A stretch of 36,188 bases of DNA from a virus (lineage: Duplodnaviria; Caudoviricetes), in the IMG/VR virus record IMGVR_UViG_3300037309_000022, positions 1 to 36,188 of that record. One strand, given 5' to 3'. Each line of letters starts with the position of its first letter. The first letter of the stretch is position 1. Made by a program: the position numbers and the translations under genes. The notes beneath the pieces were generated by a model that saw only the letters and a list, made by a program, of their open reading frames with translations, was not told the origin of the DNA and did no database searches. Positions 1,430-30,027 of this stretch are shown here, piece by piece.

Positions 1430-2026
1430 TTACGAAGGCCGTATGTCCGCAATGGGAGAGGCCCACAAAAGGGCAGCATTCAATCGAGGCGGGGCGTTCC
1501 AGCTTTCCAGGTTATACAGGCCAGGCTGCGTGCCCGGTCGCACTATCTTGACCAGGCACGGGCCGTCCACAATCTGCACCGCGCAGAGCTTGCCCAGGCA
1601 GGCTTGGTCAACGCCCTCTGTTGTGGCTTTCCAAAATACAATCCAGCCGTCCTGCATTGGGTACATAGAGTCGCCCTTAATTCGTGCGGCGACTAAATTA
1701 GACCCATCAGACGGCGGCGGTTCCACATATTCAGAAGCTGCGCCGGGCTCATAATCGTTGACGGTATGCACTTCAGCACCTGCGCCAATGTATGCAAGGA
1801 CGGGGACAAAATTAGGGCGCACTAGGTGCTTACCTGTCAATAACCATTCTGCACTGACACGGAACAACACGGCGTATCGTTTTAATTCATCCCGCTTTGG
1901 GCCTCTGCTGTCGTTTTCGTGAGCCGCGTAGGTTGGATACGGCATTCCCAATGCTCGCGCCGCGTCTGCCGCACTTGCAAAGCCTGCGCCCTCGCGGGCC
2001 TTTCTAATTCTCTGTCCTAATGTCAT
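1430..2026 (-). CDS. cI: CI-like repressor: XRE HTH plus S24 (LexA-type) autopeptidase
   Basis: N-terminal LGQRIRKARE...YAAHEN HTH; GDSM catalytic Ser and LVK Lys; divergent from cro. Start ATG 2026 or GTG 2032. Confidence 0.92.
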   Translation of the reverse strand: MTLGQRIRKAREGAGFASAADAARALGMPYPTYAAHENDSRGPKRDELKRYAVLFRVSAEWLLTGKHLVRPNFVPVLAYIGAGAEVHTVNDYEPGAASEYVEPPPSDGSNLVAARIKGDSMYPMQDGWIVFWKATTEGVDQACLGKLCAVQIVDGPCLVKIVRPGTQPGLYNLESWNAPPRLNAALLWASPIADIRPS

Positions 2027-2047
2027 CCGCACAGCATTCAGGCCAAC

Positions 2048-2090
2048 CTATGCTTTGGGCATTGACAAGAACCTATGCAAATGGCATAGA
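2048..2090 (+). promoter_or_regulatory. pR-like promoter (TTGACA 2062-2067, 17 bp, CATAGA 2085-2090) with operators at 2049-2063 and 2074-2088
   Basis: cTATGC-tttgg-GCATTg and cTATGC-aaatg-GCATAg in the cI-cro intergenic region. Confidence 0.8.
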
Positions 2091-2096
2091 CGCCCT

Positions 2097-2297
2097 ATGA
2101 TTACGGTTGATGTGAAACAGCTTCGGCAGAAATTGGGCCTTTCTCAGGAGGCTTTCGGGGAACTGGTCGGCATCGATCAGGCCACGGTGTCGCGTTACGA
2201 AAACGGCAACCCAATACCGAAGCCGACAATGAAGTTGCTGGCGCAAATCGCGCTTTCCGCGCCGCAGGTCGAGACCCCCACCCAAGCAGCGGAGTGA
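2097..2297 (+). CDS. cro: Cro-like XRE HTH regulator
   Basis: KQLRQKLGLSQEAFGELVGIDQATVSRYENG is a classic HTH_3; divergent from cI; ATG at 2097. Confidence 0.88.
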   Translation: MITVDVKQLRQKLGLSQEAFGELVGIDQATVSRYENGNPIPKPTMKLLAQIALSAPQVETPTQAAE

Positions 2298-2300
2298 GCC

Positions 2301-2474
2301 ATGATCGAGGACCACGAACGTCATTGGAATGAGCCTGCGCAGCCGTCGCGCTGGGACGTGCCTCTTGCGATTTTCGTCGCGTTCGTCGCCGTCACGGTTA
2401 TCGCCTGGACTATGCCGCGTTCGGCTCCAGCGCAACCTGTAAGCAAAACTTGCGAGTTGAGGGGGGCGGTGTAA
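2301..2474 (+). CDS. Small single-TM membrane protein, 57 aa (not in ORF track)
   Basis: GGAG RBS; MIEDHERHWNEPAQPSRWDVPLAIFVAFVAVTVIAW...; TAATG coupling to the next gene. Confidence 0.7.
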   Translation: MIEDHERHWNEPAQPSRWDVPLAIFVAFVAVTVIAWTMPRSAPAQPVSKTCELRGAV

Positions 2475-2761
2475 TGCGAAGGGCCTTGTTTTGGACGCGA
2501 GAGCGTCTCGACGACATGGCTGTTATGCGGCGGGCAGGCGCGTCGTGGTCCGACATTGCCGCTCATGTCGGCAAGCCTGCGCATATTTGCCAGAACACGT
2601 TTTATGCGTCCGGCTGCGCCAATCAAGAACGCTTGACGCAGCACGCAATCGACCGCGCGAAAAAACTTTTTTCGCAAGGGTACAACACAGCGCAAATCGC
2701 CGTCGCGGTCGGCGCTCCAGAGCACGTGATTGCAAATTCCCGTTGTTATTTGGAGGCGTGA
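2474..2761 (+). CDS. Tandem-HTH protein resembling the GcrA N-terminal domain
   Basis: WTRERLDDMAVMRRAGASWSDIAAHVG and AKKLFSQGYNTAQIAVAVG resemble GcrA WTDER..L..LW..G.SA.QIA..LG. Confidence 0.6.
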   Translation: MRRALFWTRERLDDMAVMRRAGASWSDIAAHVGKPAHICQNTFYASGCANQERLTQHAIDRAKKLFSQGYNTAQIAVAVGAPEHVIANSRCYLEA

Positions 2762-2764
2762 AAC

Positions 2765-3028
2765 ATGGCTGTCCGCAAGCTCCGCGATCTGAAGCCGGTC
2801 CAGCTCGCCCGCATCATCCACTTGCAGAAAATCACGCGCCAAGCCTGGCACGACAGGAAGAACCCGGACGACGGCGTTCTTAATCTCACCGCAGCGATGG
2901 AAGCGAAGCCCATCAAGATTCGCGCGCCAGTCGTCGCAATGTGGGCGGCTATTGGATTGATCGGCGTCTATGCCGTCGCGTGCGTCTGGCATGTGACCAT
3001 CACCCTTATTCAGCAGGCGCTGTCATGA
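2765..3028 (+). CDS. Hypothetical protein with C-terminal TM helix
   Basis: GGAGG RBS; hydrophobic VVAMWAAIGLIGVYAVACVW. Confidence 0.7.
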   Translation: MAVRKLRDLKPVQLARIIHLQKITRQAWHDRKNPDDGVLNLTAAMEAKPIKIRAPVVAMWAAIGLIGVYAVACVWHVTITLIQQALS

Positions 3029-3297
3029 GCGCTCTAGCGAAATTGGCCGCACCGTCGGCCTACGACTTGCGAGACGGCCCTACCCGCGAGGATGGGACGA
3101 CCGGAACGGCTTTGGATCGCGAAAGCGCCCAACGGGTGTCTCCCCCGTGGGAGCCTAACCTGGTTGCTGCTACGTCTCGCAACCCCGCCCACTTGGGCAG
3201 TTTCCTTCCCACCTCGGCCGGACGGGACCTAACATCCCGCTCCGGCACTTTCTCCGCCTACGGACAACCTGGACAGTTGTCAGCATCGGGGAAAGAC

Positions 3298-3612
3298 ATG
3301 GGAAAAAATACAGAGCCCGTTACGGTAAATTTGGAACGCTTCTGCGTTAACTCGGAATTGAAAGCCTGGGCAGAAAGTGCGCCCGCGAAGGTCTTGCAGT
3401 TCCGCACCGGCATCAGCGCATCGCGCATCTATGACTGGCGATCCGGCAGGTTCGGAGCCAACGCCTCAACGCTCGAAATCATTCGCCGCGACAAGCTCGC
3501 ATTTGCACGCGAGCAAATGGAGCAGGCCCGCGCGGTCATCCGGCAGAGCCTCGGGCCAATGGCCGATCTGTACCCGGACGCGGTTGAGCGAGTTTTAGGG
3601 GGCGAACTATGA
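3298..3612 (+). CDS. Putative HTH regulator (CII-like position)
   Basis: AKVLQFRTGISASRIYDWRSG is HTH-like; ATG 3298 preferred over 3025 because the upstream stretch is hairpin-dense and encodes an S/P/T/R-rich random-looking peptide. Confidence 0.55.
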   Translation: MGKNTEPVTVNLERFCVNSELKAWAESAPAKVLQFRTGISASRIYDWRSGRFGANASTLEIIRRDKLAFAREQMEQARAVIRQSLGPMADLYPDAVERVLGGEL

Positions 3613-4130
3613 CAGCCCTCGCAATCAATCCTGGCCAGTTGGTGGTTCAGGTGCGCCAGCCGGGCGGGGTGGAACCCCAAGCCGCCTCGCCCGGTAACTA
3701 TCTGACGCTGCCGAACCCGCCATCGGTCAACAAGATGTACGCGGACGGCCCGTCGCGGCGCGTCAAATCAGCCGCCTATAAGGACTGGCTGCTTGAGGCG
3801 GGCTGGCGACTGCGCGCACAAAATCCAAAGCCCCATAAGGGGCAAGTGTTGATGGTCATCGGCGCCGAACGCCACAGCGAGGCCGCAGACATCGACAACC
3901 GCGTCAAGGCTCTATTCGACCTGCTCGTGGCGCACGAGGTCATCGCAGACGACCGGCACGTGACCGGCTTCGCTATTGCCTGGCTTCCGCCGTCGAATGG
4001 CCTGGTCCACGTGGCGATCATGGACGTTCAGCCCATTACTATCCAATTCCATCCCGCCAATTCTCCGGCGCACGGCGGGTGGTTTATCGCGCCAACTCAA
4101 CCTGAGGAGCCTGAGAATAATGGCCTATGA
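3609..4130 (+). CDS. rusA: RusA-family Holliday junction resolvase
   Basis: LPNPPSVN, DIDNRVKALFDLL and IADDRHV acidic catalytic motifs. Confidence 0.88.
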   Translation: MTALAINPGQLVVQVRQPGGVEPQAASPGNYLTLPNPPSVNKMYADGPSRRVKSAAYKDWLLEAGWRLRAQNPKPHKGQVLMVIGAERHSEAADIDNRVKALFDLLVAHEVIADDRHVTGFAIAWLPPSNGLVHVAIMDVQPITIQFHPANSPAHGGWFIAPTQPEEPENNGL

Positions 4131-4923
4131 TATGAGCAAACTACGCAAGGTGCGGGGCGATGGCCCGCCGCGCATCTTAATCTATGGCACAGCCGGGATT
4201 GGCAAGACGACGCTGGCGGCTGAGTTTCCCAACGCGGTGTTCATTCAAACCGAAGACGGGACGCCAGCCGATTTGGAATTGAACTCGTTTGGCATTGCCC
4301 AAACCTTCGGCGATGTGATGGAGGGGCTCGCGTCCCTCTATAGCAGCGACCATCAATTCAACACGCTGATCTTGGACAGCGTGACCGAATTGCAGCGGCT
4401 GGTCTTCACCGAGACCTGCGCCCGTGGCGACGACAAGGGCAACGCGAAAAAGAGCATCGAAGATTTTGGGTATGGCAAAGGCTACGTCTACGCCCAACGG
4501 GTCATGCAAGAATTCATCGACGGCATCACCGCGCTTCGCCGCGACAAGGGCATGGCGGTTATCCTCATCGCTCACTCCAAGGTCGAACGCTTCGACGACC
4601 CGGAAAGCGTGTCATATGACCGCTACGAGATCGACCTGCACGACAAGCTTGTCGGCATGATCGAACGGGACATGGACGCAATCCTGCTTCTCAAAAACGA
4701 TGTGAGCATCAAGACCGAAGACCAAGGCTTCAACCGGGAACGCGCCCGCGCCGATGGCGGCGGGACGGTCTGGATACACGCACGCGGTAAGCCCGCCTTC
4801 GTGGCCAAGAACCGCTTTGGCATCCCCGACAAGGTCCGGTACACGAAAGGCCAAGGCTTCACGATTCTCTCCCAATACATGATCCCGGCCAGCGCTCCAG
4901 TCGCCGCCGAAGTCGCAGCATAA
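4120..4923 (+). CDS. Sak4-like / AAA_24 ATPase (single-strand annealing recombinase)
   Basis: ILIYGTAGIGKTT Walker A, LILDS Walker B, FGYGKGY, AKNRFG; ATG 4120 with GAGGAG RBS. Confidence 0.85.
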   Translation: MAYDMSKLRKVRGDGPPRILIYGTAGIGKTTLAAEFPNAVFIQTEDGTPADLELNSFGIAQTFGDVMEGLASLYSSDHQFNTLILDSVTELQRLVFTETCARGDDKGNAKKSIEDFGYGKGYVYAQRVMQEFIDGITALRRDKGMAVILIAHSKVERFDDPESVSYDRYEIDLHDKLVGMIERDMDAILLLKNDVSIKTEDQGFNRERARADGGGTVWIHARGKPAFVAKNRFGIPDKVRYTKGQGFTILSQYMIPASAPVAAEVAA

Positions 4924-4935
4924 GGAACCCAACAC

Positions 4936-5442
4936 ATGGCTAGTCTAGGAATGACTTTTGACCCCGCAGCCGTCGAACCCTCGCAAGGCTTCGAAGCGCT
5001 TCCAGCCGGGTCCTATCTCGCCCATATCATTGAGTCCGAAGTGAAGGACACCAAAGCCGGGACGGGCGAACGCCTGAACCTGACCTGGGAAATCATCGAC
5101 GGTCCGCACGAAAAGCGCCGCGTATGGCAGGGCATCAATATCAAGAACCAATCCGTCAAAGCCCAAGAAATCGGGCAGGGCGAACTCTCCGCCATTCTTC
5201 GCGCTATGGGCTCCGGCCCCATCGAAGACAGCGAAGACATGCACTTCAAGCCTGTCATTATCCGTCTCAAAGTCGAGAAGGATCAGAACGGCAACCTCAA
5301 GAACGAAGTGGCCAAGGTCGAGCCTGCGAATGCCGCGCCACAGCCTCAGCCGCCCCGTCTGGCCACGTCGAACCCGGCTCCTGTGCAACAGGCCCGGCCT
5401 GCGCAAGCGGCGGCCAGCGGCGCGAAAAAGCCCTGGGGCTGA
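4936..5442 (+). CDS. DUF669-like phage ssDNA-binding protein
   Basis: FEALPAGSY...TKAGTGERLNLTWEIIDG, P/A-rich tail ending KKPWG; follows the Sak4-like gene. Confidence 0.78.
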   Translation: MASLGMTFDPAAVEPSQGFEALPAGSYLAHIIESEVKDTKAGTGERLNLTWEIIDGPHEKRRVWQGINIKNQSVKAQEIGQGELSAILRAMGSGPIEDSEDMHFKPVIIRLKVEKDQNGNLKNEVAKVEPANAAPQPQPPRLATSNPAPVQQARPAQAAASGAKKPWG

Positions 5443-5528
5443 TGAACCCGCCGGGCGGGTGAAACCTACCACAGCGCCGCCCGCCCGGCGTCTCCACAAT
5501 CAGGACTGAACCTAATCGCACGGAGATC

Positions 5529-6500
5529 GTGACGATGACCGATGAAACTACGTCTGGCAACCTGTCCGGGCTTATGAGCCCCATCGTGGACGCCATAGAC
5601 GCCGCATGGGCCGCGCGCCCAACATACGAAAACAACACGCTATCCTTTGGCCAGCTTGGCAACGACTGCGACCGCCAACTGTGGTACGGGTTCCGCTGGG
5701 CCAATCCGCCTGAAGCTTTCTCCGGCCGAATGCGCCGGTTGTTCGAAACCGGCAACATTGCCGAACGCGCCATAGTCGCGGACCTGCAAGCGGCTGGCAT
5801 CAAGGTGTCGCCGATCGATCCGGCCACGGGCAGGCAATGGGCCGTTTTGCTCTATGGCGGCCACATCAAAGGCTATGCCGATGGCAAAGCGACGAACGTG
5901 CCAACGGCGCCGGTCGTCGAGCATCTGCTCGAAATCAAGACTCATAACGACAAGTCATTTAAGGACCTGAAAAAGAACGGCGTGGCGAAGGCGAAGCCTG
6001 CCCATGCCGTCCAGATGCAAGCGCTCATGCATGGCCTTGGCCTGACGCGGGCGCTGTACGTGGCCAAGAACAAAAATGACGACGAACTTTACGCCGAGCG
6101 GCTCCACTTCGACGCGACCCACGCCATATCCATCGTGGCTCGCGCTGAGCGGATCGTGAACGCGGACGACCCGCCGCCGAAGCTGCACGACGACCCGGAA
6201 AGCAAGGCCGCGTTTCAGTGCAAGTTTTGCCCGGCTCGGAGCGTCTGCCATGAGCGCGCAATGCCGCGCCAAAACTGCCGGACCTGTATGCACTCGACTG
6301 CGAGGCCGGAAGGCGGGTGGCATTGCCGCCGCTGGGACAAGAGCCTGACGCCTGACGAACAACGCGCCGGGTGCGTCAAGCATCTGTTCCTTCCAGGCCT
6401 TGTGCCCGGCGAACAAATCGATGCGGACGAAACGGCGGAAACCGTCACCTATCGCATGGCCGATGGGTCCGAATGGATCGATGGTGGGAGGGCGGCGTGA
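5529..6500 (+). CDS. Cas4-like PD-(D/E)XK exonuclease with Cys cluster
   Basis: DCDRQLWY, GYADG, LLEIKT, QMQALM and C-terminal CKFCPARSVC. Confidence 0.82.
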   Translation: MTMTDETTSGNLSGLMSPIVDAIDAAWAARPTYENNTLSFGQLGNDCDRQLWYGFRWANPPEAFSGRMRRLFETGNIAERAIVADLQAAGIKVSPIDPATGRQWAVLLYGGHIKGYADGKATNVPTAPVVEHLLEIKTHNDKSFKDLKKNGVAKAKPAHAVQMQALMHGLGLTRALYVAKNKNDDELYAERLHFDATHAISIVARAERIVNADDPPPKLHDDPESKAAFQCKFCPARSVCHERAMPRQNCRTCMHSTARPEGGWHCRRWDKSLTPDEQRAGCVKHLFLPGLVPGEQIDADETAETVTYRMADGSEWIDGGRAA

Positions 6501-6844
6501 GCATCGTTATTGAATGCGGCATCGTGCCGAAACCTAAGCCGCGTGTGACGCGCCGCGAGGTGCTGATCGCTTTGAGCCGCGCGACCGGACTGCCTGAAAA
6601 GTGGCTCACTGGGCGCATTAAACGGCAAGAACTGATCGTCCCGCGTCACATCGGCTATTATCTGTGCCAGAAGCTGACGGGCAGTTCATACTTTCAAATC
6701 GGCCAGACATTCAACCGCGACCATAGCACGATCATTTCCGGCATCCGGAATGTTAACGCAAATTCGGGCGGCTTGTTCGCTGGCCCGCTTGCTGAAATCG
6801 AGCCCAAGGTTCTCTCGCTATTGGGGCTCGACGACCATGATTGA
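6497..6844 (+). CDS. Stand-alone DnaA C-terminal (domain IV) DNA-binding protein
   Basis: PRHIGYYLCQKLTGSSYFQIGQTFNRDHSTIISG matches the DnaA domain IV signature; GTG 6497 overlaps the upstream TGA. Confidence 0.85.
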   Translation: MSIVIECGIVPKPKPRVTRREVLIALSRATGLPEKWLTGRIKRQELIVPRHIGYYLCQKLTGSSYFQIGQTFNRDHSTIISGIRNVNANSGGLFAGPLAEIEPKVLSLLGLDDHD

Positions 6845-8450
6845 TCTGCGCCCCTATCAATCCGAGGCAATCTCATCCGTCCTGTCCTATTGGAACCAAG
6901 GCGGCGGCGATCCACTCGTGGAAATGGCCACCGGCCTCGGCAAGTCGGTCGTCATTGCAAAGCTGGTGCAGGATTTGGTGGAAGCCTATCCTACCATGCG
7001 CGTCCTCATGCTGGTTCACACGCGCGAACTGGTCGAGCAAAACGCCAAGCAATTGATGCGCCTGTGGCCGCGTGCGCCCATGGGCATCTATTCAGCCGGG
7101 CTTGGCCGCCGCGATGCCCATCACCCCATTACCTTCGCCTCTATCCAATCCGTCTATCGCAAGGCGGGAATACTCGGGCCGCGCGATCTGGTCTTGATCG
7201 ATGAGTGCCACTTGCTCCCGCACGAAGGGGAGGGGATGTATCGCAAGCTCCTCGCCGATCTGCGCTCCGTCACCCCTGACCTGCGCGTCTGCGGTTTTAC
7301 CGCCACGCCATACCGCATGGACAGCGGGCGGCTGGACAAGAACGGGCTATTCGACAAGACCGTCTACGCATACGGCATCGCACGCGGCATCGATGACGGC
7401 TGGCTCTCGCCCATCGTCTCGCGCGGCTCCAAGACCGAAATCGACGTTTCCGGCGTAGCCAAGCGCGGGGGCGAATTCATCGCCGGGGCCCTCGAAGCGG
7501 CAGCCGATAAGGACAGCATCACGCAAGCGGCCTGCGATGAAATCGAAACGCTTGGCGAGATGCGCCGGTCCTGGCTGATCTTCTGCTCCGGCGTCTCGCA
7601 CGCGCACCACGTCCGGGACGCTCTGCGCTCGCGCGGCATCACCGCCGAAACGGTCACGGGCGAAACGCCGCTCGGCGAGCGGGACCGGATCATCAGCGCA
7701 TACAAGCGCGGGGAAATCCGGGCGCTGACCAATATGTCAGTGCTGACCACTGGTTTCGACGCGCCGAACGTGGACATGATTGCACTGCTCCGCCCCACGC
7801 TTTCGCCCGGTCTTCTCGTCCAGATGATCGGGCGCGGGACCCGGCTCGCCTCCGGCAAAGAGAACTGCCTGATCCTCGATTTTGCTGGGAACATCCGCCG
7901 TCACGGGCCGATCGATACAGTCATGGTGGAAGGCAAGGCGGGAGGCCCTGACGACCCGGAAAAGGTCAAGGTTGAAGACATTCGCGCCAAGGAGTGTCCG
8001 CAATGCTTTTATCTCGCGCCCATCCAAGCGCGGGTGTGCAAGCATTGCGACTGGGTCTTTGTCTCTGACGAACCCAAACACGAGCGCAAAGCCGAAACCG
8101 TCGCCGTTCTCTCGCGCGATCTGCCCAAGGGGCCAACGGCTCTCAGCGTCGTCAATTGGGAAGCGAAGCGCTGGAAAAAGGAAGGCGCGCCGGACTCCGT
8201 TCGCGTCACCTATCACGCCGGGCTCCAATCGATCAGCGAGTGGGTCTGCCCTGAGCATGGCGGATACGCTGGCCAAAAGTTCGAAGGCTTCTGGCTGTCC
8301 ATGGCTGGGCGCTCTCCGGTGCCTCGCTCCGTCACCGACACGCTCGCGCGTTGGTCTGAGTTGCGCCAGCCGACACACATACAAGTCAGGCCGAACGGCA
8401 AGTTCTTCGACGTGGTGGGCCGGAAGCATCTGGCAGGGGTGGCGGCATGA
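6837..8450 (+). CDS. SF2 DEAD/DEAH-box helicase (RadD/YejH-like) with Zn ribbon
   Basis: LRPYQ, ATGLGKS, DECH, TATP, QMIGRGTR, CPQC...CKHC. Confidence 0.92.
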   Translation: MIDLRPYQSEAISSVLSYWNQGGGDPLVEMATGLGKSVVIAKLVQDLVEAYPTMRVLMLVHTRELVEQNAKQLMRLWPRAPMGIYSAGLGRRDAHHPITFASIQSVYRKAGILGPRDLVLIDECHLLPHEGEGMYRKLLADLRSVTPDLRVCGFTATPYRMDSGRLDKNGLFDKTVYAYGIARGIDDGWLSPIVSRGSKTEIDVSGVAKRGGEFIAGALEAAADKDSITQAACDEIETLGEMRRSWLIFCSGVSHAHHVRDALRSRGITAETVTGETPLGERDRIISAYKRGEIRALTNMSVLTTGFDAPNVDMIALLRPTLSPGLLVQMIGRGTRLASGKENCLILDFAGNIRRHGPIDTVMVEGKAGGPDDPEKVKVEDIRAKECPQCFYLAPIQARVCKHCDWVFVSDEPKHERKAETVAVLSRDLPKGPTALSVVNWEAKRWKKEGAPDSVRVTYHAGLQSISEWVCPEHGGYAGQKFEGFWLSMAGRSPVPRSVTDTLARWSELRQPTHIQVRPNGKFFDVVGRKHLAGVAA

Positions 8451-18423: not shown

Positions 18424-18918
18424 ATGGCCGTCACCACTGAGTCGTCCACTCAATACAAAAAGGACAACGCGCCGACGACCAACGGGATCAACCAGCACTA
18501 CGACCAAGGCGTTCCGAAGTACTGGTTCTTTTCGTTTACGCAAGGCGCGGCGGCTGGCGATGCCAACTCCACGATGGACTTGCGGCAACTGCCTCCGGGC
18601 AAGTTCCGCATCATCGGTCAGGCGTCCTATGTCCGCACATCCGCGTTCGGCGCGTCTCGCACGCTCGACATCGGCCACACCGGCTACACCAAGGCGGACG
18701 GCACGACGGTCGCGGCGGACGAAGATGCGATCCACAGCGCGGCGGACGTGTCTTCGGCTGGCGGGTTCGTTCCTGCCGACGAGAACTACGCGGCTGGCTC
18801 TGGCGGTACGATCTTGATCGACAGCGCCACGGCGGTCACCATCGAAGCGAAGGTCGAGGGCGGAACCATTCCTGCCGGTGCGACCATCGACGGCTTCCTT
18901 GTGACCATCGGGGCCTAA
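18424..18918 (+). CDS. Putative capsid cement/decoration protein
   Basis: Beta-rich, A/G/T-rich 164 aa directly after the capsid gene. Confidence 0.6.
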   Translation: MAVTTESSTQYKKDNAPTTNGINQHYDQGVPKYWFFSFTQGAAAGDANSTMDLRQLPPGKFRIIGQASYVRTSAFGASRTLDIGHTGYTKADGTTVAADEDAIHSAADVSSAGGFVPADENYAAGSGGTILIDSATAVTIEAKVEGGTIPAGATIDGFLVTIGA

Positions 18919-18922
18919 GCCC

Positions 18923-19537
18923 ATGGCCTCAGCCGTTGACCGGACAGAGACGGGCGTCGCGAACCTCGCCTTGCGTTTTATTGGCGAGACGCGACGCCTC
19001 TCCGATGTCGAAACGGACGCGACGGCAGAGGCGCAATACGCGCGCGATTTCCTCGGGATTGCGCGCGAAACGGTTTTAGCTGGATACGATTGGAACTTCG
19101 CGACCCGGCGTGCGTCTCTCGCTGCGTCCGCGACGGCTCCGGCGTTCGGATATAGCTATCAGTACCCTCTGCCTTCCGGGTGCTTGCGCATCCGGGAGGT
19201 GGTGGGCGCTGGCCAGGATTACCCCTGGACCATCGAGAACGACGGCACGCAGCAAGTGCTGTTGATCGATCTGACTTCGCCGATCAACGTGGTCTACATC
19301 GCGGATGTGACCGCCTTCGCGCAATGGTCCTCGCACGGTTTTGCGGCCTATGCGGCGCAGCTCGCGGCGATGATGGCCCTGCCGTTGACCAAGGACGTGC
19401 AGATCGCCCGGCTGATCGAAGACCAGGCCAAGCGCTCCATCGAGCGCGCATACGAATTGGACTCCCAGGAAAGCGGCGGCGTCCCCGGCTTCCCGCAAGG
19501 CTCTTGGATCACGGCGCGCGATGCCTCTGAGTATTGA
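18923..19537 (+). CDS. Tail tubular protein A / adaptor (T7 gp11-like)
   Basis: ANLALRFIG, WNFATRRASLA, YQYPLPSGCLRI. Confidence 0.85.
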   Translation: MASAVDRTETGVANLALRFIGETRRLSDVETDATAEAQYARDFLGIARETVLAGYDWNFATRRASLAASATAPAFGYSYQYPLPSGCLRIREVVGAGQDYPWTIENDGTQQVLLIDLTSPINVVYIADVTAFAQWSSHGFAAYAAQLAAMMALPLTKDVQIARLIEDQAKRSIERAYELDSQESGGVPGFPQGSWITARDASEY

Positions 19538-20927
19538 CCGCGCGCCAGCCTTTAGCCGTGGCGTCGTTGGCCGGAGACTGCAAGGCCGCACCGACTTCGA
19601 AGGGTTCCGGCTCATGCTGGGCTCTTGCGACAACATGCTCCCGATCGTCGAGGGCGGTCTGACGCGAAGGCCAGGCACCTATCACACGGCCAACGCGGTT
19701 TCGACGGCCGAGCGTCTTATCCCGTTCGTGTCGAGCGCGGCGCAGTCCTATGTCATCGAGGCGTCGCCGGGCGTGTTCCGGTTCTACTACGACGAAGCGC
19801 AGATCCAGGTGAGCGGCAGCCCGCTTGAGGTTTCGACGCCATTCACGGCGGACGATCTGGACGGGCTGAACTGGACGCAAGACAGCGACGTGATGTACTT
19901 GCTGACGCGGTCTCGCGGTCAGAAAATCCACAAGCTCTCGCGGTTTTCGCATTCGTCTTGGACGCTGGAAGAGATCGACCCGGACGATGGGCCGTTCTTG
20001 GATGAGAACACTGATAAGACGCACACGATCACGACAGCGTTTTCCTCGGCCAGCGATTACGAGGTGGGCGACGTTGTGTCGTTCACCGCATCCGAGGCGA
20101 CGTTCGAGCCGGGCCATGTCGGCTCGCTGATCCGCATCCGGCTGACCTCGGCCGATGGCGTCGACTATTGGTCGCCAGGGACAACGCTCAGCGGCGTTCA
20201 GACCACGGTTTATGGCGAGAACTTTTACTATGCCGAGTCCGGCACTGAGACGCGCACAAGCCCGCCCGTGCATCTTGAGGGCTCCGTCTATGACGGCATT
20301 CGTGGGGTCAAGTGGCGATACCTACACTCAGGCTTCGGCGTGGCTCGCATCACGTCCTATACGTCTCCGACGCAAGTTTCCGGCGTCATTGTCCGGGAGT
20401 TTCCGGCAAGCCTGAACGCGGCCGCCGCCTATAAATGGTCGATCGGCGCATGGTCTGCGGCTAATCTCTATCCGGGCGTGGGCCTGCTCGCGGATCAACG
20501 CTTGATCGCAGCCAGCACCGACAACCAGCCGACGACCGTTTACGGCTCGAAGGCGCTGCGGAATTACGAGAAGTTCGAGCCTGGCGCGCGGGCCTCTGAC
20601 GCCTTCGTCTATACGCTGGCCAATCTTGAGGCGACGCCGGTGAGCTGGATGGCCACGGTGAACGCCCTGTTGCTGGGCACAGATCGCGGCGTGTTCGTCA
20701 TGTCCGGCGATACCTATGACGACCCTATCGACGCGACGACAGCGCGCGCCCGCCTCGCGGTCAACGAAGGCTGTGCGCCCGTTTCGCCTTTGGTCATCGG
20801 GCCAAAGGTTGTCTTCGTCTCGCGCGACCGGCGCCGTCTTTTAGAGATGGGCTACGACTTCCAGATCAACGGGTTCCAGACCCGCGACCTGACGATCCTG
20901 AACAACGAAATCGGCCTGACGCAATAG
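19521..20927 (+). CDS. Tail tubular protein B / nozzle, N-terminal part (split gene)
   Basis: FSRGVVG...GRTD, GGLTRRPGT, TQDSDVMYL, GAWS...YP, QRLI; ends just after DLTILNNEIG. Confidence 0.88.
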   Translation: MPLSIDRAPAFSRGVVGRRLQGRTDFEGFRLMLGSCDNMLPIVEGGLTRRPGTYHTANAVSTAERLIPFVSSAAQSYVIEASPGVFRFYYDEAQIQVSGSPLEVSTPFTADDLDGLNWTQDSDVMYLLTRSRGQKIHKLSRFSHSSWTLEEIDPDDGPFLDENTDKTHTITTAFSSASDYEVGDVVSFTASEATFEPGHVGSLIRIRLTSADGVDYWSPGTTLSGVQTTVYGENFYYAESGTETRTSPPVHLEGSVYDGIRGVKWRYLHSGFGVARITSYTSPTQVSGVIVREFPASLNAAAAYKWSIGAWSAANLYPGVGLLADQRLIAASTDNQPTTVYGSKALRNYEKFEPGARASDAFVYTLANLEATPVSWMATVNALLLGTDRGVFVMSGDTYDDPIDATTARARLAVNEGCAPVSPLVIGPKVVFVSRDRRRLLEMGYDFQINGFQTRDLTILNNEIGLTQ

Positions 20928-20936
20928 GGGTGGACC

Positions 20937-21335
20937 GTGGCGAACGCGATGTATCCAAGCTGCAAGACATTGCTTCTGGGCGGCGACATCGACCTGTTGA
21001 ACGACACGATCAAGGTGGTGGCAATCGACACGGCGGATTACACCTACAATTCGGCGCATGATTTCCTGAACGATGTGGCGGCGGGTTCCCGGATCGCAAC
21101 CGCAACGCTGGCGTCTAAGACGATTTCGGGCGGCGTGTTCGACGCGGCGGACGTGACCTTCACCTCCGTCACCGGCGATCCATTCGAAGCCTTGATCCTC
21201 TACAAGGACACGGGCGTCGAATCCACGTCGCCATTGATCGCCTATCTGGACAGCGGCTTTGTTGGCCTGCCGTTCACGCCAAGCGGGGGGGATATCACGC
21301 TCGGCTGGAACGCCAGCGGCATCATTTCGCTCTAA
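20937..21335 (+). CDS. 132-aa beta-rich structural (minor tail-type) protein inserted inside the nozzle gene
   Basis: ANAMY, NDTIKVV, HDFLND, GVFDAADVTF, YKDTGVESTSPLIAYLD, GLPFTPSGGDI; recalled from tail regions of long-tailed phages; own RBS and GTG. Confidence 0.8.
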   Translation: MANAMYPSCKTLLLGGDIDLLNDTIKVVAIDTADYTYNSAHDFLNDVAAGSRIATATLASKTISGGVFDAADVTFTSVTGDPFEALILYKDTGVESTSPLIAYLDSGFVGLPFTPSGGDITLGWNASGIISL

Positions 21336-22210
21336 TGGCGGACATCGATGCGCCGCTCCTAACGGTCTCGCAGACCTTTCCAGGCGGCACGCTCACGCGT
21401 CTGCCTGCCGGGAACGGGTTCAAGCGGATCGTCTGGCAGCAAGACCCTTATCGCGCGATCTGGGCATTGCGCTCCGATGGCGTTTTGGTGAGCCTGACCT
21501 ATCGCAACGACCAGAACGTCTACGCCCTGGCGCGGCATGTGTTCGACGGGGAGGTCAAGGACGTTGCGGTTATCCCGCATCCAGACGGCACGCAAGATCA
21601 GCTTTGGCTGTTGATCGACCGGACGGCGAACGGCTCCACGACCCGGCGCGTCGAGCGCATGGCGAAGGAGCATATCCCGGTCTCGGCCTCCGATCTTTCT
21701 GGCTTCATGCTGATGGATGCCGCGGTCATTTATTCCGGCGCGTCCACGCCGACCCTGACGGGCCTGTCCCATCTTGAGGGCAAGACGGTTCACGCCGTCA
21801 CTGAAGGCCGTCACCTGGGGTCCTACACGGTCGCCTCTGGCCAGATCACGTTGAACGAGAACGTGACCAGCGCCGTGGTTGGTCTGACCTACACGAGCGC
21901 GATCGAGAGCGTGCCCCTTGCTCCGGATCAGACCCTTGGGCGGCCTGGCGTCAAGAGCGTGCCGACGCTCTGGCTGAACGTGCTCGATGCGATTGGGGGC
22001 GAGGTCGCGACCAACCGTGGCGACTGGGTCATCATCGACGGGCGCGAGAGTTCGGCACCGATCCAGGCCGAGACGCCGGCGCTTACTGGCGTTGTCGCCG
22101 TCAAGCTTTTGAGCGGCTGGGACCGGGACATCACTGTTCAGGTTCGCCAGACGTTGCCGCTGCCTCTGACCATTTTGGATTTCACCACGACGACGAGGAC
22201 GAGCGCCTAA
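21335..22210 (+). CDS. Tail tubular protein B / nozzle, C-terminal part with a novel ~25-aa leader peptide
   Basis: WQQDPYRAIWALRSDG.LVSLTY, ARH, LWLLIDRT, GLSHLEGKTV, VGLTY, QTLPLPLTIL; TAATG coupling. Confidence 0.88.
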   Translation: MADIDAPLLTVSQTFPGGTLTRLPAGNGFKRIVWQQDPYRAIWALRSDGVLVSLTYRNDQNVYALARHVFDGEVKDVAVIPHPDGTQDQLWLLIDRTANGSTTRRVERMAKEHIPVSASDLSGFMLMDAAVIYSGASTPTLTGLSHLEGKTVHAVTEGRHLGSYTVASGQITLNENVTSAVVGLTYTSAIESVPLAPDQTLGRPGVKSVPTLWLNVLDAIGGEVATNRGDWVIIDGRESSAPIQAETPALTGVVAVKLLSGWDRDITVQVRQTLPLPLTILDFTTTTRTSA

Positions 22211-22728
22211 TGTGCGTTGCCGCCGCAGCCATTCCCATGATCGTGAGCGCAGCCGCCGCGACGGTGAAGGCTGTCGGCGACTATTCGTCCGCGCAGTCCG
22301 AAGCGCGCGGATTGCAGCGCGATGCGACCATCAACGACCGGCAGACGGCCGAAGAAGAGGCGCGCATCCGGTATCGCAACGAGTTCGTGCTGTCCGAGGC
22401 AACGCAAGATGTTTCGGGCTCCGGCCTGACCGCGAGCGGATCGACCCTGACAACCTTGCGCGAGAACGCAAAGCGATTGGAATTGGAGGCGCTCGACACG
22501 CGATACCAGGGCCAATTGACCAGCGCGAAACTGCGCAACAATGCCCAAGCCCTGAAGCGTCAATCCTATGTGTCCTTGGCTGGCGGTCTTCTGGGCAGCG
22601 CGGCTGAGGTTCTGAAGGGTCCAGGCCTGTTCGACACGGGCGGCGCGCAAGCGCCCAAGATGACGCTGGGCGGCACGACAAAGAGCCAAGCGCGCATCGG
22701 CGGGCGCACCATGGGGCCGGTTTACTAA
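22210..22728 (+). CDS. Internal virion / ejection protein, T7 gp14-like
   Basis: MCVAAAAIP N-terminus (T7 gp14 begins MCWAAAIP), SGLTASGS motif; follows nozzle. Confidence 0.75.
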   Translation: MCVAAAAIPMIVSAAAATVKAVGDYSSAQSEARGLQRDATINDRQTAEEEARIRYRNEFVLSEATQDVSGSGLTASGSTLTTLRENAKRLELEALDTRYQGQLTSAKLRNNAQALKRQSYVSLAGGLLGSAAEVLKGPGLFDTGGAQAPKMTLGGTTKSQARIGGRTMGPVY

Positions 22729-24425
22729 TGGTGAAAATGGTCGCAGTCCCGACGCGGGTTCCTCGCGGCGGCGTATCCGCGCAACCGTTGAACTTCGACC
22801 CGTTGGCGCAAGGGCTGTCGCGCGTTGGGTCTGCGGTTCAGGAGGTCGCGGACCGGCAACAACGCGCCATGGATCACGCGGCGGGCATCCTGTTCGACCA
22901 AGGGCGGCGCGAGGCCATTGCGGCGGCGCTGGACGAAGCCAAGGCGGCAGCCGGGCCAGCGGGCAAGGGTTACGGCGAAGCCGCGATGAAGCTCTACCAA
23001 GAGCGCGCGGCGAAGCTGTTGCCGTCATTGCCTGAGGGGATTTCGCAAGAGGCGCGGCAGCGGTTCGAGGTCGAGATCGAAAGCGGCGCGGGCGCGGTTC
23101 AAGGCGCGGCGCGCGAGTATGTGCTGGGCGCAGAGAAGGCGTATCAGGTTCAGGCGTTTGAAACGGTGCGAGCCGATGCGCAACGGGCGATCCTGGCAGA
23201 CCCTGCGGCTTATGGTGCGGCTTTGTCCAACTTGGAAGCCACGGTTGACCGGTTGACGGGTTCGGCGTTTTCGCCAGAGCAGGCGCTAGACGTTAAGCGC
23301 AAGTTGCGGGCGGAAGCCGCTGGGCTTGCAGTCGAGTCCCTCGTTCAACGCGGCGACGAAGACATTGCCGAGACGGCATTGGACCCGAAGCGCGGACGGA
23401 TTGCGCGCGATCTGGACGCCGATGGGCAAATTCAGGCCAAGCGCCGGATCGAAGCCGCACGCGAACGCAGGCGCATCGAGCGCGACCGGGCGGAGAATGA
23501 AGCCGAGAAAGCGTTGAAAAGGCGTCAGGAAGAAGCCGAGAAGGAATACTTCGACAAGCTGACCACCGGGGCCTTGACCGAAGCCGATATGGCGCAAGCC
23601 AAGAAAGACTTAAGCCCATCGGCCTATCGCACCTTGCTCGACGTTCACCGGCGCGGCGATGGCCAAGACCGGCCCGATGTGGTCAAGAGCATCACGGACA
23701 AAATCTACGGCCAAGGCCAGGACGCGAAGGCGGACATTCAGGCCGCGCACCGTGACGGTAAGCTGTCCAACGACACAGCGGCCAAGCTCTACAAAGAGAA
23801 CGACGCCAAGAGCGGGGCAGGGGACGACAAGGTCCCGGTCACGTTTCGCGCGCAGATCGACTATGTCCGAAACTCGCTGCGGACCAGCGATTTTAATTTC
23901 GATCCAAACCAGGCGCAGAACCAAGCCGAAGCGGTACGGGCCATCACCCTCTATGCGCAAGAGCCCGGCCGCACGGTCGAGCAAGTGCAAAAGTACGCCG
24001 ATCAATTGGTGGGAACCTACACCGGCCAGCCGCCCAAAAAGGCTCCGGCTCCGGGTGTTCTTGCCAACCCCCCGCCAGTAACCGGCGACGGCTTCACGCG
24101 ACCAGCGCCATTGAACGCCAAAGACCTTGGCATCGCGCCCAAGGCTCCGGCACCGGCTCCCGCCGCGCCTGCGGCCAAGCCTGCAACGCCTACGCCAGCG
24201 ACACCGGCAGCCCCAGCGGCTCCGCAAGTCAAGCCGCGCGCAGACCTTCCCCCAGCGCCAGCGGCCTACGCAAAACAACCGGCCCAACGCACGCCCGAAG
24301 AACGCCAGCAAGTCACACGGTGGATTCAACTGTACATGATCCGGAAGCACGGCGGCGATAAGGCCAAGATCATGGCCGACCCCGCCTTTCAGCGCATCAT
24401 GCGTGAGAACGGGGCGATGCGGTAA
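22728..24425 (+). CDS. Internal virion / ejection protein (gp15 position) with Pro/Ala-rich linker
   Basis: Helical A/Q/R-rich 565 aa; synteny. Confidence 0.65.
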   Translation: MVKMVAVPTRVPRGGVSAQPLNFDPLAQGLSRVGSAVQEVADRQQRAMDHAAGILFDQGRREAIAAALDEAKAAAGPAGKGYGEAAMKLYQERAAKLLPSLPEGISQEARQRFEVEIESGAGAVQGAAREYVLGAEKAYQVQAFETVRADAQRAILADPAAYGAALSNLEATVDRLTGSAFSPEQALDVKRKLRAEAAGLAVESLVQRGDEDIAETALDPKRGRIARDLDADGQIQAKRRIEAARERRRIERDRAENEAEKALKRRQEEAEKEYFDKLTTGALTEADMAQAKKDLSPSAYRTLLDVHRRGDGQDRPDVVKSITDKIYGQGQDAKADIQAAHRDGKLSNDTAAKLYKENDAKSGAGDDKVPVTFRAQIDYVRNSLRTSDFNFDPNQAQNQAEAVRAITLYAQEPGRTVEQVQKYADQLVGTYTGQPPKKAPAPGVLANPPPVTGDGFTRPAPLNAKDLGIAPKAPAPAPAAPAAKPATPTPATPAAPAAPQVKPRADLPPAPAAYAKQPAQRTPEERQQVTRWIQLYMIRKHGGDKAKIMADPAFQRIMRENGAMR

Positions 24426-27400: not shown

Positions 27401-27862
27401 AAGGCCAAGGATGATCCAGTTGACGCAGAGCTTGCGCGCCTTGAAGCGCCGATCCGGGCGATCCGGGAAAAGACCAGCTTCGGGCTTGGCAATCGATCGG
27501 CAGAGATCGATTTGGGCCGGTATCCGGAAGTGCTGGACGAATATATCCGGCTGTCCGGTAACGAACTCAAAATTGGCGGGCTTGGCCTCCACGATTACCT
27601 GACGGCTGTCGTTACCGGCAAGCATCCGCAGTCCGAGGTCTATGCGCGGCTGTCCGATGGGCGCGAGGGCGGCAAGGCGCAGTTCATCGACGGCGTCGTG
27701 GAGCGCTACCGCAAGGCGGCACGCGCCAAGATTTTGACCGACGAACGCTTCTCCGAGTTCCGGGCCGATTGGGACCAGGCCGTTGGGCGCAAAAGCGCCG
27801 AGCGCGCCAGGACGCCGGAAGCGCGCACGCGCTTTGAAATGCAGACAGGGGTTTCTCAGTAA
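24425..27862 (+). CDS. Large internal virion / ejection protein (gp16 position)
   Basis: 1145 aa helical; INGILSGPATH, PFIRTPTNI, YAVKLGDRWVQFSRLDP motifs typical of podovirus ejection proteins. Confidence 0.75.
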   Translation: MAETLTPEQEQALMKELDASAATAPVQPLAPEDQTRVASDLEALILEDQSAQPQSAGEAALSTAADIGQGVIEAPASIVRGVADAAKNSLSFVDDVLWWANDNIAGFDTPKDQRGGFADFIPEVKAKEETVTGNLIRGVASFMTAFVPIIGPAGKVAEAAKLAGAAKVIGQTAGAGFIADFLTQDPNGQTLSNAWQNAGLPQNVLTDFLAASPEDKGTATRLKAALEGLGVGTALDGLMRGFKIARKAVQTNTAPAQAFGPEFMTPKAQEAFVRVGNDAPAVVRVPEGGQPIEALGQAADSLGVPVDIVAKSLIKAGKAGTDDVYLNLSHIETPEQVKKTLASMADAFAPTVNDAKRGVQSWEDTKALADQMGMTVDDLLYRRRAKNGARMPFTAEESLGAQRLLTASAENLAALAKAVADPNSGDLDVFAFNKAFTVHQAIQAEVMGSVAETARSLNAMRIPRGSTAESLRAVKRALDADPNMVTNARQLAAMVTAAAESGLPVSVVNKMVQKAGPMAATMAAAKQVFINGILSGPATHLVNVASNGLNTVLQVADRAVASRLGIEGGPEAIETAAMSHALIRSQWDAMKFAWMALKEGRDVSATGQFEGSEVLSAISDKAFGIPRNKGPFTETLVQAVNFTGQAIGIPGRLLAGADTYFKTIGYRMEVHALAARQAMQEGLTGEALSKRIGELTTNPPENIRLDADEFAHRMTFTEDPGKFVNQMIKLRGVGGDLNPLTFFVPFIRTPTNILRNILERSPFAFLVSRFRDDMAAGGARQALAISRMATGTVAMGVIMDAAERGLITGKSPGDPGERDLWTRQGKQEYAVKLGDRWVQFSRLDPVGGVLGVAADLSNALKNARINPDDVDEWQEISAAMIASISQTFLSKSYVQGVVDLMDTLNDPERYSESMINSLTASFMPFSSLSGTIERAVDPEMRFARDPFELMQSRIAGLSERLQVKRDIWGNERRTIESGFGDTLDAMNPVRIAKAKDDPVDAELARLEAPIRAIREKTSFGLGNRSAEIDLGRYPEVLDEYIRLSGNELKIGGLGLHDYLTAVVTGKHPQSEVYARLSDGREGGKAQFIDGVVERYRKAARAKILTDERFSEFRADWDQAVGRKSAERARTPEARTRFEMQTGVSQ

Positions 27863-30027
27863 TGACCGTGGCCGCTAACGACCGCGTTGTCCGGTACTCC
27901 GGCAACGGCTCAACAACCGTGTTCGCTTACGACTTCAAAATCGTGAGCGGGAGCGATCTGCGCGTGACCTTGGTCACGTCTGCTGGCGTCGAGACGGTGC
28001 AGACCATCACCACGCATTATTCCGTTTCCGGCGTCGGCGATGCGGGCGGCGGAAATGTGACCTTTGTCACGGCTCCGGCGACTGGTTCTACTGTAGTTAT
28101 CGAGGGGCGGCTTGCGCCTGCGCAAACGTCCAGCATTCCGACTTCGGGCGCGTTCCCAGCGACGACTGTGGAAGCGGCATTGGATAAGCTGACGCGGACA
28201 GTTCAGGAACATGAGACGCGGCTTGCGCGCGGGTTCCGGACCAATCTCAAGGACACCGCGTCCGAAATAGTCCTGCCGCCTGCGGCCGATCTGGTCAACA
28301 AAGTCTTCCACATGGGCGCGGACGGAAAGACGCCGACCGCAATCGATACCGATATTTCGACGCTTGATGACATCGTCGATGAACTATCCGCCGATGCGGA
28401 TCGGGCCGAGCTGGCGGCCGATCGCGCTGAAGTCGCGGCGGCACTGGCTGGCGTTGCTGGCAATGGCCGGATGCCGATCTACTATTTTCCAATCCTCGGC
28501 CAGTCAAACGGCGAGGGGCGCGGCGATAAGGCGGACGCTTCTTATCCGTCGCCCGTCACCACGGGCTATTACATCACGGGCGGCGTGATTTCCTCGCCTC
28601 TTGCCGATAGCGTCGGCGGCGCTTCGACGGGCTCGGCCTGGCCTGCATTCTCGAACCAATGGGAATTGAGCAAGACCGGAACAAAGGCGATCTTCACAGA
28701 CTTGGCGACGGGCGGATCGGCGCTGATTGCGGCGGCGAACCCGGCAAACAATTGGAGCGCGACAGGTTCGCTCCGAGCGGCGGCTGTGTCTGCAATCAAC
28801 ACGAATATCGCGGCAATTCAGGCTGACACGCGCTTTCAATTGATTGGCGTCATGCCGATCTGGGTGCAAGGCGAGCAGGACGCGACAGAGCTATTTGCGG
28901 GAACGGCTGGCGTTTCCAAGGCGAACTATAAGACCGAGTTCGCAACGCTCGTGGATTATCTGAAAGCCAATATCACAATCGTTCCGTTCCGGTTCGGCAT
29001 CATCCGCATTGGCTCCAAGAACGACCGCTCGCAAAACTCGACTTCAACCCCGGCATGGTCTGACATTCGCGCGGCGCAAGACGAACTTTGCGCATCGCGC
29101 GCCGATTGCCGGATGCTCTATCGCGGCACTTCATCTTTTGCAAAAGACGCGCTCAACTACATGGACAGCGCGACGACCGGCACTGACGTCCACTGGGGTC
29201 AACAGGGCCTGAACTTGGCGGGCAAGTGCGCGGCGATCGAAAGTGCAGCAACTGTGGCATCGAGCGTGCCAACGGCTCCGGCGCTTCTTGGTTCAGCGTC
29301 TATTACGACAGACACTGACATCACGACGACGCTCGCATCACCAAGAACGATTTCCTACACGACGCACGCTAGCGCCCAAGGTTTGATCGTCGTCGTGGTC
29401 AACAACCGCAACGGATCGACATCGGGCAGTGTGTTGAGCGGGTGCACGTTCAACGGCGTGACCATGAAGCTGGCGACGAAAAACACCGCGTCGAACCTTT
29501 TGGCGAATGCTGCGGGCTCGACCGGCTCCGCCGCTGGGCGCGTTGACGTCATGGTCTATCACATTGGCAACGCGGCTTATCTGGCAGCGACCGGGAGCAA
29601 TATCGCTGGTGTCACGGCGAACGTGGTCATTTCGTGGAACGCAAACGTGGCGCATCTCAACCAAGTATGGATACAGTCGGTTGACTCCGACATAATCGAA
29701 GAAACCACGCCCTGCACGAACGCGAGCACGGCAACGGCCGCACTAACGGTCAACCCTGGTCCTGGCAATGCCGCATTGTGCGTGGCCGTCGCCGGGTCGA
29801 ACGGGGACGCGGCGGCGGCTCTCACATGCACCTGGACAGGTTTAACGGAGATCATGGACAGCGGCGGCTCTAATGGCACGCGCGCCTGTCAAATGTCGGT
29901 TGCGACCGGCACGTTGACGGCAAACGTAGTTGCAACTGTCACCGCGACGTTAAGTGGAAATGCAACAGAGTTTGGCTTGATGGCCGCATGTTTCCGCAAG
30001 CGTGTTAGCGGCGAAGAAGCCGCATAA
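27862..30027 (+). CDS. Tail fiber/spike: T7 gp17-like N-terminal anchor, SGNH (SASA-type) acetylesterase, C-terminal beta domain
   Basis: YSGNGSTTVFAYDF...ALDKLT anchor; ILGQSN, WVQGEQD and DVH esterase blocks. Confidence 0.85.
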   Translation: MTVAANDRVVRYSGNGSTTVFAYDFKIVSGSDLRVTLVTSAGVETVQTITTHYSVSGVGDAGGGNVTFVTAPATGSTVVIEGRLAPAQTSSIPTSGAFPATTVEAALDKLTRTVQEHETRLARGFRTNLKDTASEIVLPPAADLVNKVFHMGADGKTPTAIDTDISTLDDIVDELSADADRAELAADRAEVAAALAGVAGNGRMPIYYFPILGQSNGEGRGDKADASYPSPVTTGYYITGGVISSPLADSVGGASTGSAWPAFSNQWELSKTGTKAIFTDLATGGSALIAAANPANNWSATGSLRAAAVSAINTNIAAIQADTRFQLIGVMPIWVQGEQDATELFAGTAGVSKANYKTEFATLVDYLKANITIVPFRFGIIRIGSKNDRSQNSTSTPAWSDIRAAQDELCASRADCRMLYRGTSSFAKDALNYMDSATTGTDVHWGQQGLNLAGKCAAIESAATVASSVPTAPALLGSASITTDTDITTTLASPRTISYTTHASAQGLIVVVVNNRNGSTSGSVLSGCTFNGVTMKLATKNTASNLLANAAGSTGSAAGRVDVMVYHIGNAAYLAATGSNIAGVTANVVISWNANVAHLNQVWIQSVDSDIIEETTPCTNASTATAALTVNPGPGNAALCVAVAGSNGDAAAALTCTWTGLTEIMDSGGSNGTRACQMSVATGTLTANVVATVTATLSGNATEFGLMAACFRKRVSGEEAA

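Follow-up and report, generated by a model that had tools for sequence, protein, structure and literature searches.

The nozzle locus

The window, i.e., the whole 36,188-base virus record analysed here (IMG/VR record IMGVR_UViG_3300037309_000022, Caudoviricetes), estimated to be 82% complete, carries a podophage virion operon whose genes follow one another, according to PHROG and Pfam matches, in the order portal, scaffold, capsid, adaptor, nozzle, internal virion proteins and fibre, which is compatible with a nozzle placed below the adaptor. The element in question is the nozzle gene of this operon, which is split into two open reading frames (ORFs) around a complete gene encoding a protein of 132 amino acids (aa) of the family phrog_644 (Table 1). 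The upstream part, hereafter the N-chain, ends as ...DLTILNNEIGLTQ*, with a short non-nozzle tail (GLTQ) and a stop codon at 20925-20927. The downstream part, hereafter the C-chain, opens in another frame with a leader of 25 residues, MADIDAPLLTVSQTFPGGTLTRLPA, and is coupled to the preceding gene by TAATG, a coupling that recurs at four further downstream genes of the window.

Table 1. Coordinates of the split nozzle, of the gene it encloses and of the flanking virion genes discussed in the text
Feature	Position	Strand	Evidence and remarks
Nozzle N-chain, 468 aa	19521..20927	+	phrog_376 9-444; 8CK1 residues 12-478; own nozzle profile 11-472
Spacer GGGTGGACC	20928..20936	+	Weak Shine-Dalgarno-like stretch preceding the GTG start of the 132-aa gene
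132-aa whisker/wing-arm-type protein	20937..21335	+	phrog_644, E 2e-36; GTG start; predicted rope-bound dimer
Nozzle C-chain, 291 aa	21335..22210	+	phrog_376 444-706; own profile 474-737 from residue 27; 8CK1
Rope-type repeat, C-chain residues 4-20 (IDAPLLTVSQTFPGGTL), predicted docking site	21344..21394	+	Motif profiles
Adaptor (tail tubular A-type) gene	18923..19537	+	phrog_394, E 1.4e-38; overlaps start of nozzle N-chain
Tail fibre, podophage-type anchor and esterase-like domain	27862..30027	+	phrog_1640 over residues 1-118; PF03629 below cut-off, E 2.7e-4

Residues 9-464 of the N-chain cover positions 9-444 of phrog_376 and residues 23-286 of the C-chain cover positions 444-706 out of 712, i.e., the full length of the family is matched but across two ORFs instead of one polypeptide. 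Both chains also match the nozzle of phage Carin-1 (8CK1; E 9.8e-61 and 1.5e-28), and neither contains a stop codon or a frameshift. An earlier note, made from the sequence alone, had described a nozzle split into two intact ORFs around a complete gene, with a new leader coupled by TAATG at the C-chain start (21335), and this description is borne out, each half matching both the nozzle profile and 8CK1 with no decay seen. Its further statement that the 132-aa gene has its own ribosome-binding site holds for a complete gene starting at GTG but less well for the site itself, the spacer offering only a weak Shine-Dalgarno-like stretch.

The position of the cut can be appreciated on the predicted model of a continuous relative, designated L291 (predicted local distance difference test, pLDDT, 95.8; template modelling score, TM, 0.91 to 8CK1), through which a platform/beta-propeller nozzle fold is also predicted for the window. 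On this model, the cut lies where helix 461-464 ends and in the loop 465-472, before strand 473-479. With domain names borrowed by analogy from solved nozzles, the N-chain would comprise the platform-N, most of the beta-propeller and the tip, and the C-chain would supply, after its leader, the last propeller strands (about seven, judging from strand order and secondary structure), a fibre-dock-like domain and the platform-C.

Relatives and phylogeny of the split nozzle

Continuous nozzles account for 219 of the 225 related loci examined, namely 158 of 160 viral loci (contig ends cutting the remaining two), 50 of 54 and 11 of 11. When 164 proteins from a HMMER search with the C-chain were checked, 115 were full-length, 41 started inside nozzle sequence and eight had a non-nozzle leader; among these eight, six start at profile positions 473-474 and two at 461 and 468, and the four best non-self hits of the C-chain are all leader-bearing. 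Short C-part matches, e.g., P0059 and P0066, were not counted as splits because they start inside nozzle sequence. A last search, with 17 new proteins, yielded four more leader-bearing C-chains besides that of locus L289, bringing the other leader-bearing C-chains to 14, with gene context for four of them. Scans of viral contigs with a single protein, i.e., the C-chain or P0006 (an N-chain ending at profile position 472 and known here as a protein alone), returned no loci.

The three-gene order of the window, namely N-chain, phrog_644 gene, and leader plus C-chain, was found in three of 54 loci (L288, L289 and L290), which are contigs of alphaproteobacterial metagenome-assembled genomes with all frames intact and provide the relatives of like layout that the earlier note had called for. 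Their N-chains end at profile positions 472-473 and their C-chains start at 473-474. Identity to the window is 39% for the N-chains and 32-38% for the C-chains, compared with 66-68% and 51-55%, respectively, among the three. The C-chain start codon overlaps the stop of the middle gene in the window, L288 and L289, the N-chain tails vary (GLTQ, PEADQAGG, RP, KGA) and the inserts range from ~0.5 to ~2.9 kb. As the same layout occurs in three other contigs, the split is no assembly accident. The C-chain of L290 (L290:3553-6879) reaches 1108 aa, with a distal domain of ~720 residues ahead of four to five rope repeats; structure-atlas leads for this domain (beta-helix) were weak, under 0.9.

Other forms of division were encountered. 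L276 (4349-6810) represents a second split type at the same loop, in which the N-chain stop overlaps a GTG start and a Pro-rich leader with an ETDA motif follows without any middle gene; the leaders of P0073, P0074, P0094, P0104, P0124 and P0224 resemble it. In L225 (1690-3724), the nozzle lies on two ORFs with a break between profile positions 102 and 263, away from the loop under study.

The nearest N-chains to that of the window are those of L288-L290, and a quick tree of the N-half (44 rows, the rows of the trees being a chosen subset of hits) groups the window with L288-L291 at a Shimodaira-Hasegawa-like approximate likelihood ratio (SH-aLRT) value of 98. In a careful tree of the whole nozzle (50 rows), the window and L288-L291 lie on one side of a branch (77/97.8, not starred), and L291 is placed among split members (96/34). 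L291 (4591-6807) is a continuous nozzle with GQGDPLAQ at the cut site and a loop longer by eight residues; since it is nested in the split clade with this longer loop, re-fusion is the simplest reading, and L291 may possibly be a re-fused nozzle with GQGDPLAQ as its scar, a weakly supported proposal. A single origin was neither rejected nor shown, be it for all split forms (approximately unbiased test, p-AU 0.15) or for the four inserted genes (p-AU 0.525).

The enclosed 132-aa protein

The GTG start of the 132-aa gene is supported by the N-terminus of its family, MANALY. The protein is homologous to the tail wing arm gp31 of phage Bxb1 (9D93_Ra; E 5.5e-13) and shares 54% identity with gp63 of phage Corndog; the family was matched in 445 of 50,697 phage records, 396 of these being mycobacteriophages. 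The predicted model (pLDDT 91.6) has the fold of gp31 (Z 14.7, root-mean-square deviation, rmsd, 1.3 over 102 residues), followed by a KP1 baseplate chain (Z 12.2), GP4 fibre I (8JOU; Z 8.1, rmsd 2.9 over 112 residues), Bas63 chain K (9MT4; Z 7.4, rmsd 3.1 over 95 residues), taken as the whisker from entry title and size, and Sf14 chain K (9C39; Z 7.3). A Z below 8 may mean merely a common arrangement, yet the top rows here are all phage virion parts. The A1002 fibre and VP1 gp11 chains are absent from the fold-match lists of the model. As such, homology and fold of the monomer agree with a rope-bound dimer, the scores for GP4 and Bas63 being middling, and a rope-type partner, whose rope role is inferred, lies alongside.

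The earlier note had considered the inserted gene foreign and its family usual in tail regions of long-tailed phages, and neither view was upheld. G+C content at third codon positions (GC3, 0.80) and codon adaptation index (CAI, 0.74) are native, like those of other virion genes; given this composition and the layout conserved in relatives, the insert is old and ameliorated rather than newly grafted from a foreign source. Nor is the family restricted to such tail regions: the genes upstream of it differ among 80 viral loci, many being ORFs of 700-880 aa, and no nozzle match was found in any of these loci in up to 6 kb on either side.

Of note, Bxb1 gene 31 (L298:6520-6614, about 27519-27613 of the record) is annotated and modelled as 106 aa, and its frame is open for 27 codons further upstream. 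This extension resembles the N-terminal helix of the family and begins at ATT, seven bases behind AAGGAG; judging from the sequence, a non-ATG start or a mis-set start is possible.

The leader and its repeat

A first motif profile, built from ten leader repeats anchored by hand, gave 86 hits, or 42.1 per 1e5 windows, spread over 31 of the 80 loci of the 132-aa family; for comparison, the nozzle-only loci had a rate of 2.5 per 1e5, with hits in 11 of 160, and two of 80 shuffled controls were hit; near the 132-aa family the hits are in tandem with a spacing of ~20-25 residues. With the leader of the window left out of the profile, it still ranks first of 275 windows in its own protein. A reverse profile was made from 35 non-nozzle repeats, which were picked with the first profile and are hence not independent, and places the leader on top of 49,690 six-frame windows of the record (17.6 vs. 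10.8 for the next). Corndog gp64, encoded directly behind the 132-aa-family gene of that phage and included in neither profile, gave four hits of 13.1-25.6 bits. The resemblance between the leader and a repeat accompanying the 132-aa family, put forward in the earlier note, is sustained by searches in both directions. No PDB sequence matched the repeat profile. Elsewhere, L011, L016, L041, L045, L060 and others of L001-L080 hold, near phrog_644 genes in varied settings, uncharacterised proteins mostly made of tandem rope-type repeats, some of which include lectin-like-looking globular parts.

Among nozzles, one site was found in L288 (12.7), one in L289 (24.7), four in L290 (8.9-17.2) with a weak fifth, and two weak ones in the C-chain P0072 (8.0 and 5.5), with none in L276-type leaders or in L291. 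Over the six loci with gene context, the motif and the 132-aa gene occur together in the window, L288, L289 and L290, and neither occurs in the split L276 or the continuous L291. The three other genomes having the 132-aa family contain one match each, and the L291 genome none.

Proposed architecture

Taken together, the reading considered probable is that of a split nozzle whose chains likely reassemble into one propeller subunit and whose C-chain leader likely acts as a one-site rope holding one dimer of the 132-aa protein. Its parts carry different weight: that the nozzle is made of two chains and functions as such is held with high confidence, whereas docking of the 132-aa protein on the leader, argued from sequence, is regarded as quite likely. 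The repeat would act as a rope. In the proposed course of events, a cassette comprising the dimer gene and the start of a rope gene would have entered an ancestral nozzle gene of Carin-1 type at a loop between blades, putting a stop behind the N-part and fusing the rope start onto the C-part. The N- and C-chains would then rejoin as one propeller subunit, the 132-aa protein would dimerise and the leader would complete the open beta-sandwich of the dimer, as in Bas63 whiskers and A1002 fibres, resulting in six short stubs round a hexameric nozzle; in relatives, the rope would be extended to two sites, or to four to five, with a large distal domain added. The purpose, which is the weakest step, is most likely an auxiliary contact with the host surface beside the main fibre, otherwise bracing. 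From the overall interpretation of the earlier note, the two-chain split, the leader repeat and the existence of fold relatives that are dimers threaded on N-terminal ropes through strand complementation (PMC12609058, PMC13730344) are retained, and the foreign graft and the confinement to long-tailed phages are abandoned.

Several observations weigh against docking on the leader or against the kinship on which it leans. Bxb1 gp29, gp30, gp32 and gp33 have no motif match (best 3.2 bits) even though no solved homolog is closer than gp31, and the repeat of the window is likewise unmatched in the rope of A1002 type; the 132-aa family can therefore be anchored otherwise. A motif spotted by eye in the tail of Bxb1 gp30 was dropped (score -10.6). 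The split C-chains P0221 and P0222, known here as C-chains alone, score only -2.2. The profiles were anchored by hand, the second was seeded by the first, a single threshold was applied and loci were not dereplicated. A site of 17 residues may be too short for a stable dimer, and the fold resemblance to dimers proven to be rope-bound is middling (Z 7.4-8.1 at 7-10% identity). Finally, a quick tree of the C-half (68 rows) leaves the window apart from L288-L290, and the record titles of L288-L291 carry one common project id.

Such points feed the most serious alternative, which is nonetheless considered unlikely, namely that the two-chain nozzle works but the leader is merely what the insertion left behind, mainly giving a start codon, with the 132-aa protein bound elsewhere on the virion or disused. 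The split of L276 at the same loop without any dimer gene, the degenerate leaders of P0221 and P0222 and the anchoring of gp31 in Bxb1 without the motif all speak for it; on the other hand, the best motif match of the window is precisely the leader, each of the three genomes having the gene carries one copy of it, and gene and motif are retained jointly in nozzles ~60% diverged and jointly absent in L276 and L291.

Far less credible is the restoration of a single nozzle chain by intron splicing, ribosomal bypass or protein trans-splicing, with the middle gene as a passenger. The two parts do tile the profile without loss, as precise rejoining needs, but no Rfam match at E<=1 was obtained around the insert, the translations show no intein-like ends, C-chains begin at start codons of their own, and relatives differ in the length and sequence of the N-chain tail and in insert size. 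The insert codes for the phrog_644 protein only, without transposase or endonuclease, contrary to what a self-splicing intron or insertion element would show, and a repeat pair bracketing it and a target-site duplication were both sought and neither found, in keeping with the statement of the earlier note that no transposase, intron or repeat flanks it. That the gene is dead after a recent interruption, or that the assembly is chimeric, appears the most improbable explanation of all. It can invoke the scarcity of split forms among related loci and the nature of the read support: positions 18500-23500 are spanned by one 24,448-base Logan contig with zero differences at a depth of 15, but this sole run spanning both junctions is possibly the source of the window itself, and a second-study run, X2, contributes two exact 151-base pieces within 21431-21715 of the C-chain gene, bridging neither junction. 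The three other contigs with the same layout argue strongly against it, as do the native codon use, the intact frames and the absence of a second nozzle copy from the record at its estimated completeness.

Beyond the preferred reading of a nozzle carrying a one-site rope, a broader proposition may be advanced tentatively, the balance being slightly against it. The loop before the last propeller blades would be a reusable plug-in site of podophage nozzles, where a mobile cassette, made up of the phrog_644 dimer gene and a rope repeat of 17 residues, splits the essential nozzle and the new N-terminus becomes a tunable mast; the window would be the minimal early stage of an architecture at which A1002 arrived on its own, and the repeat would be a portable tag for hanging the dimer on any virion protein. 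The series would run from one site in the window to two in P0072 and to four to five in L290, together with its distal domain of ~720 residues, L276 showing another leader without dimers and L291 a re-joined state. In this second nozzle family, apparent steps can be seen in sequence: the gene is cut cleanly at one loop, the rope has a single site or is longer and bears cargo, one form has no dimers and another is probably re-fused. For phrog_644, a large family lacking annotation, a testable partner motif is gained and, if the proposal is true, a natural permissive site is marked in an essential tail protein.

Neighbouring genes

The adaptor-then-nozzle order of the window recurs in L289, L290 and L276. 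Between capsid and adaptor lies a gene of 164 aa (18424-18918) without PHROG or Pfam match, possibly a capsid cement protein, and L289, L290 and L276 likewise have unmatched genes of 164-167 aa ahead of their adaptor. The ordinary tail fibre is kept alongside the whisker module; both its GC3 (0.69) and CAI (0.59) are below those of neighbouring genes, which suggests a more recent exchange, and its match to acetylesterase (PF03629) is weak. At 1430-8450, a CI-like repressor on the minus strand faces a cluster encoding RusA, Sak4, SSB, a Cas4-like exonuclease and a helicase, i.e., a temperate-type early region; no integrase was found among the 30 ORFs of the window scanned.

Comparison with known systems

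Within its own family, the nozzle of the window is closest in kind to the Carin-1/LME-1-type nozzles (8CK1_A, 9EFK_M; phrog_376, tail tubular protein B), which occupy the same place between adaptor and internal virion proteins; these solved nozzles are single chains, whereas the window has two chains with an inserted gene. Regarding the 132-aa protein, its sequence homologs Bxb1 gp31 (9D93) and Corndog gp63 are siphophage tail-tip accessories encoded outside a nozzle gene. Bxb1 gp31 hangs on gp30 (PMC12646305), which lacks the motif, whereas Corndog gp64 consists purely of repeats of the motif of the window; the accessible part of the Corndog preprint leaves gp63 unmentioned. GP4 fibre I, the Bas63 whisker and Sf14 share its fold at 7-16% identity and are dimers threaded on a free rope or N-terminal extension, but are anchored on the collar or on a separate rope protein and not on the nozzle; in Bas63, whisker dimers wrap an N-terminal rope which completes their open sandwiches (PMC12609058). 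A literature search, with subscription papers mostly outside its reach, found no description of a gp31-type gene splitting a phrog_376 nozzle.

The closest design is that of the Pseudomonas podophage A1002 (PMC13730344). There, the nozzle is heterodimeric, gp42 and gp39 complementing each other into one nozzle, and the C-chain gp39 gives the last propeller strands and platform-C while its N-terminal rope carries 11 fibre dimers by beta-augmentation; modular exchange was merely proposed there as the origin of the split (PMC13730344). In A1002 and Kochitakasuvirus (gp42 nozzle-base, gp41 and gp40 fibre dimers, gp39 nozzle-rope; KPP25 ORF008-005), the genes follow the same order, i.e., N-chain, dimer gene(s), and rope plus C-chain, and in KPP25, whose 147-aa gene is identical to 44NX_B, TAATG coupling precedes the C-chain as in the window. 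The proteins nonetheless differ from those of the window, belonging to phrog_8040, 8123, 3758 and 26502, and no match involving the nozzle or 132-aa profiles was obtained in either direction (best E 0.16 among nine sequences); therefore, the window would work like A1002 without being a member of its group, and the two designs are likely of independent origin, judging from these sequences. The rope of A1002, ~300 A in length, offers 11 sites, and this phage also has a pair of dimer genes and a long tail tube; in the window, a single gene goes with one predicted site in a leader of 25 residues. The design is already published for A1002 in other protein families and is not, as such, unprecedented; by analogy, the window would be a miniature, probably independent version of what cryo-EM has revealed in this unrelated phage.

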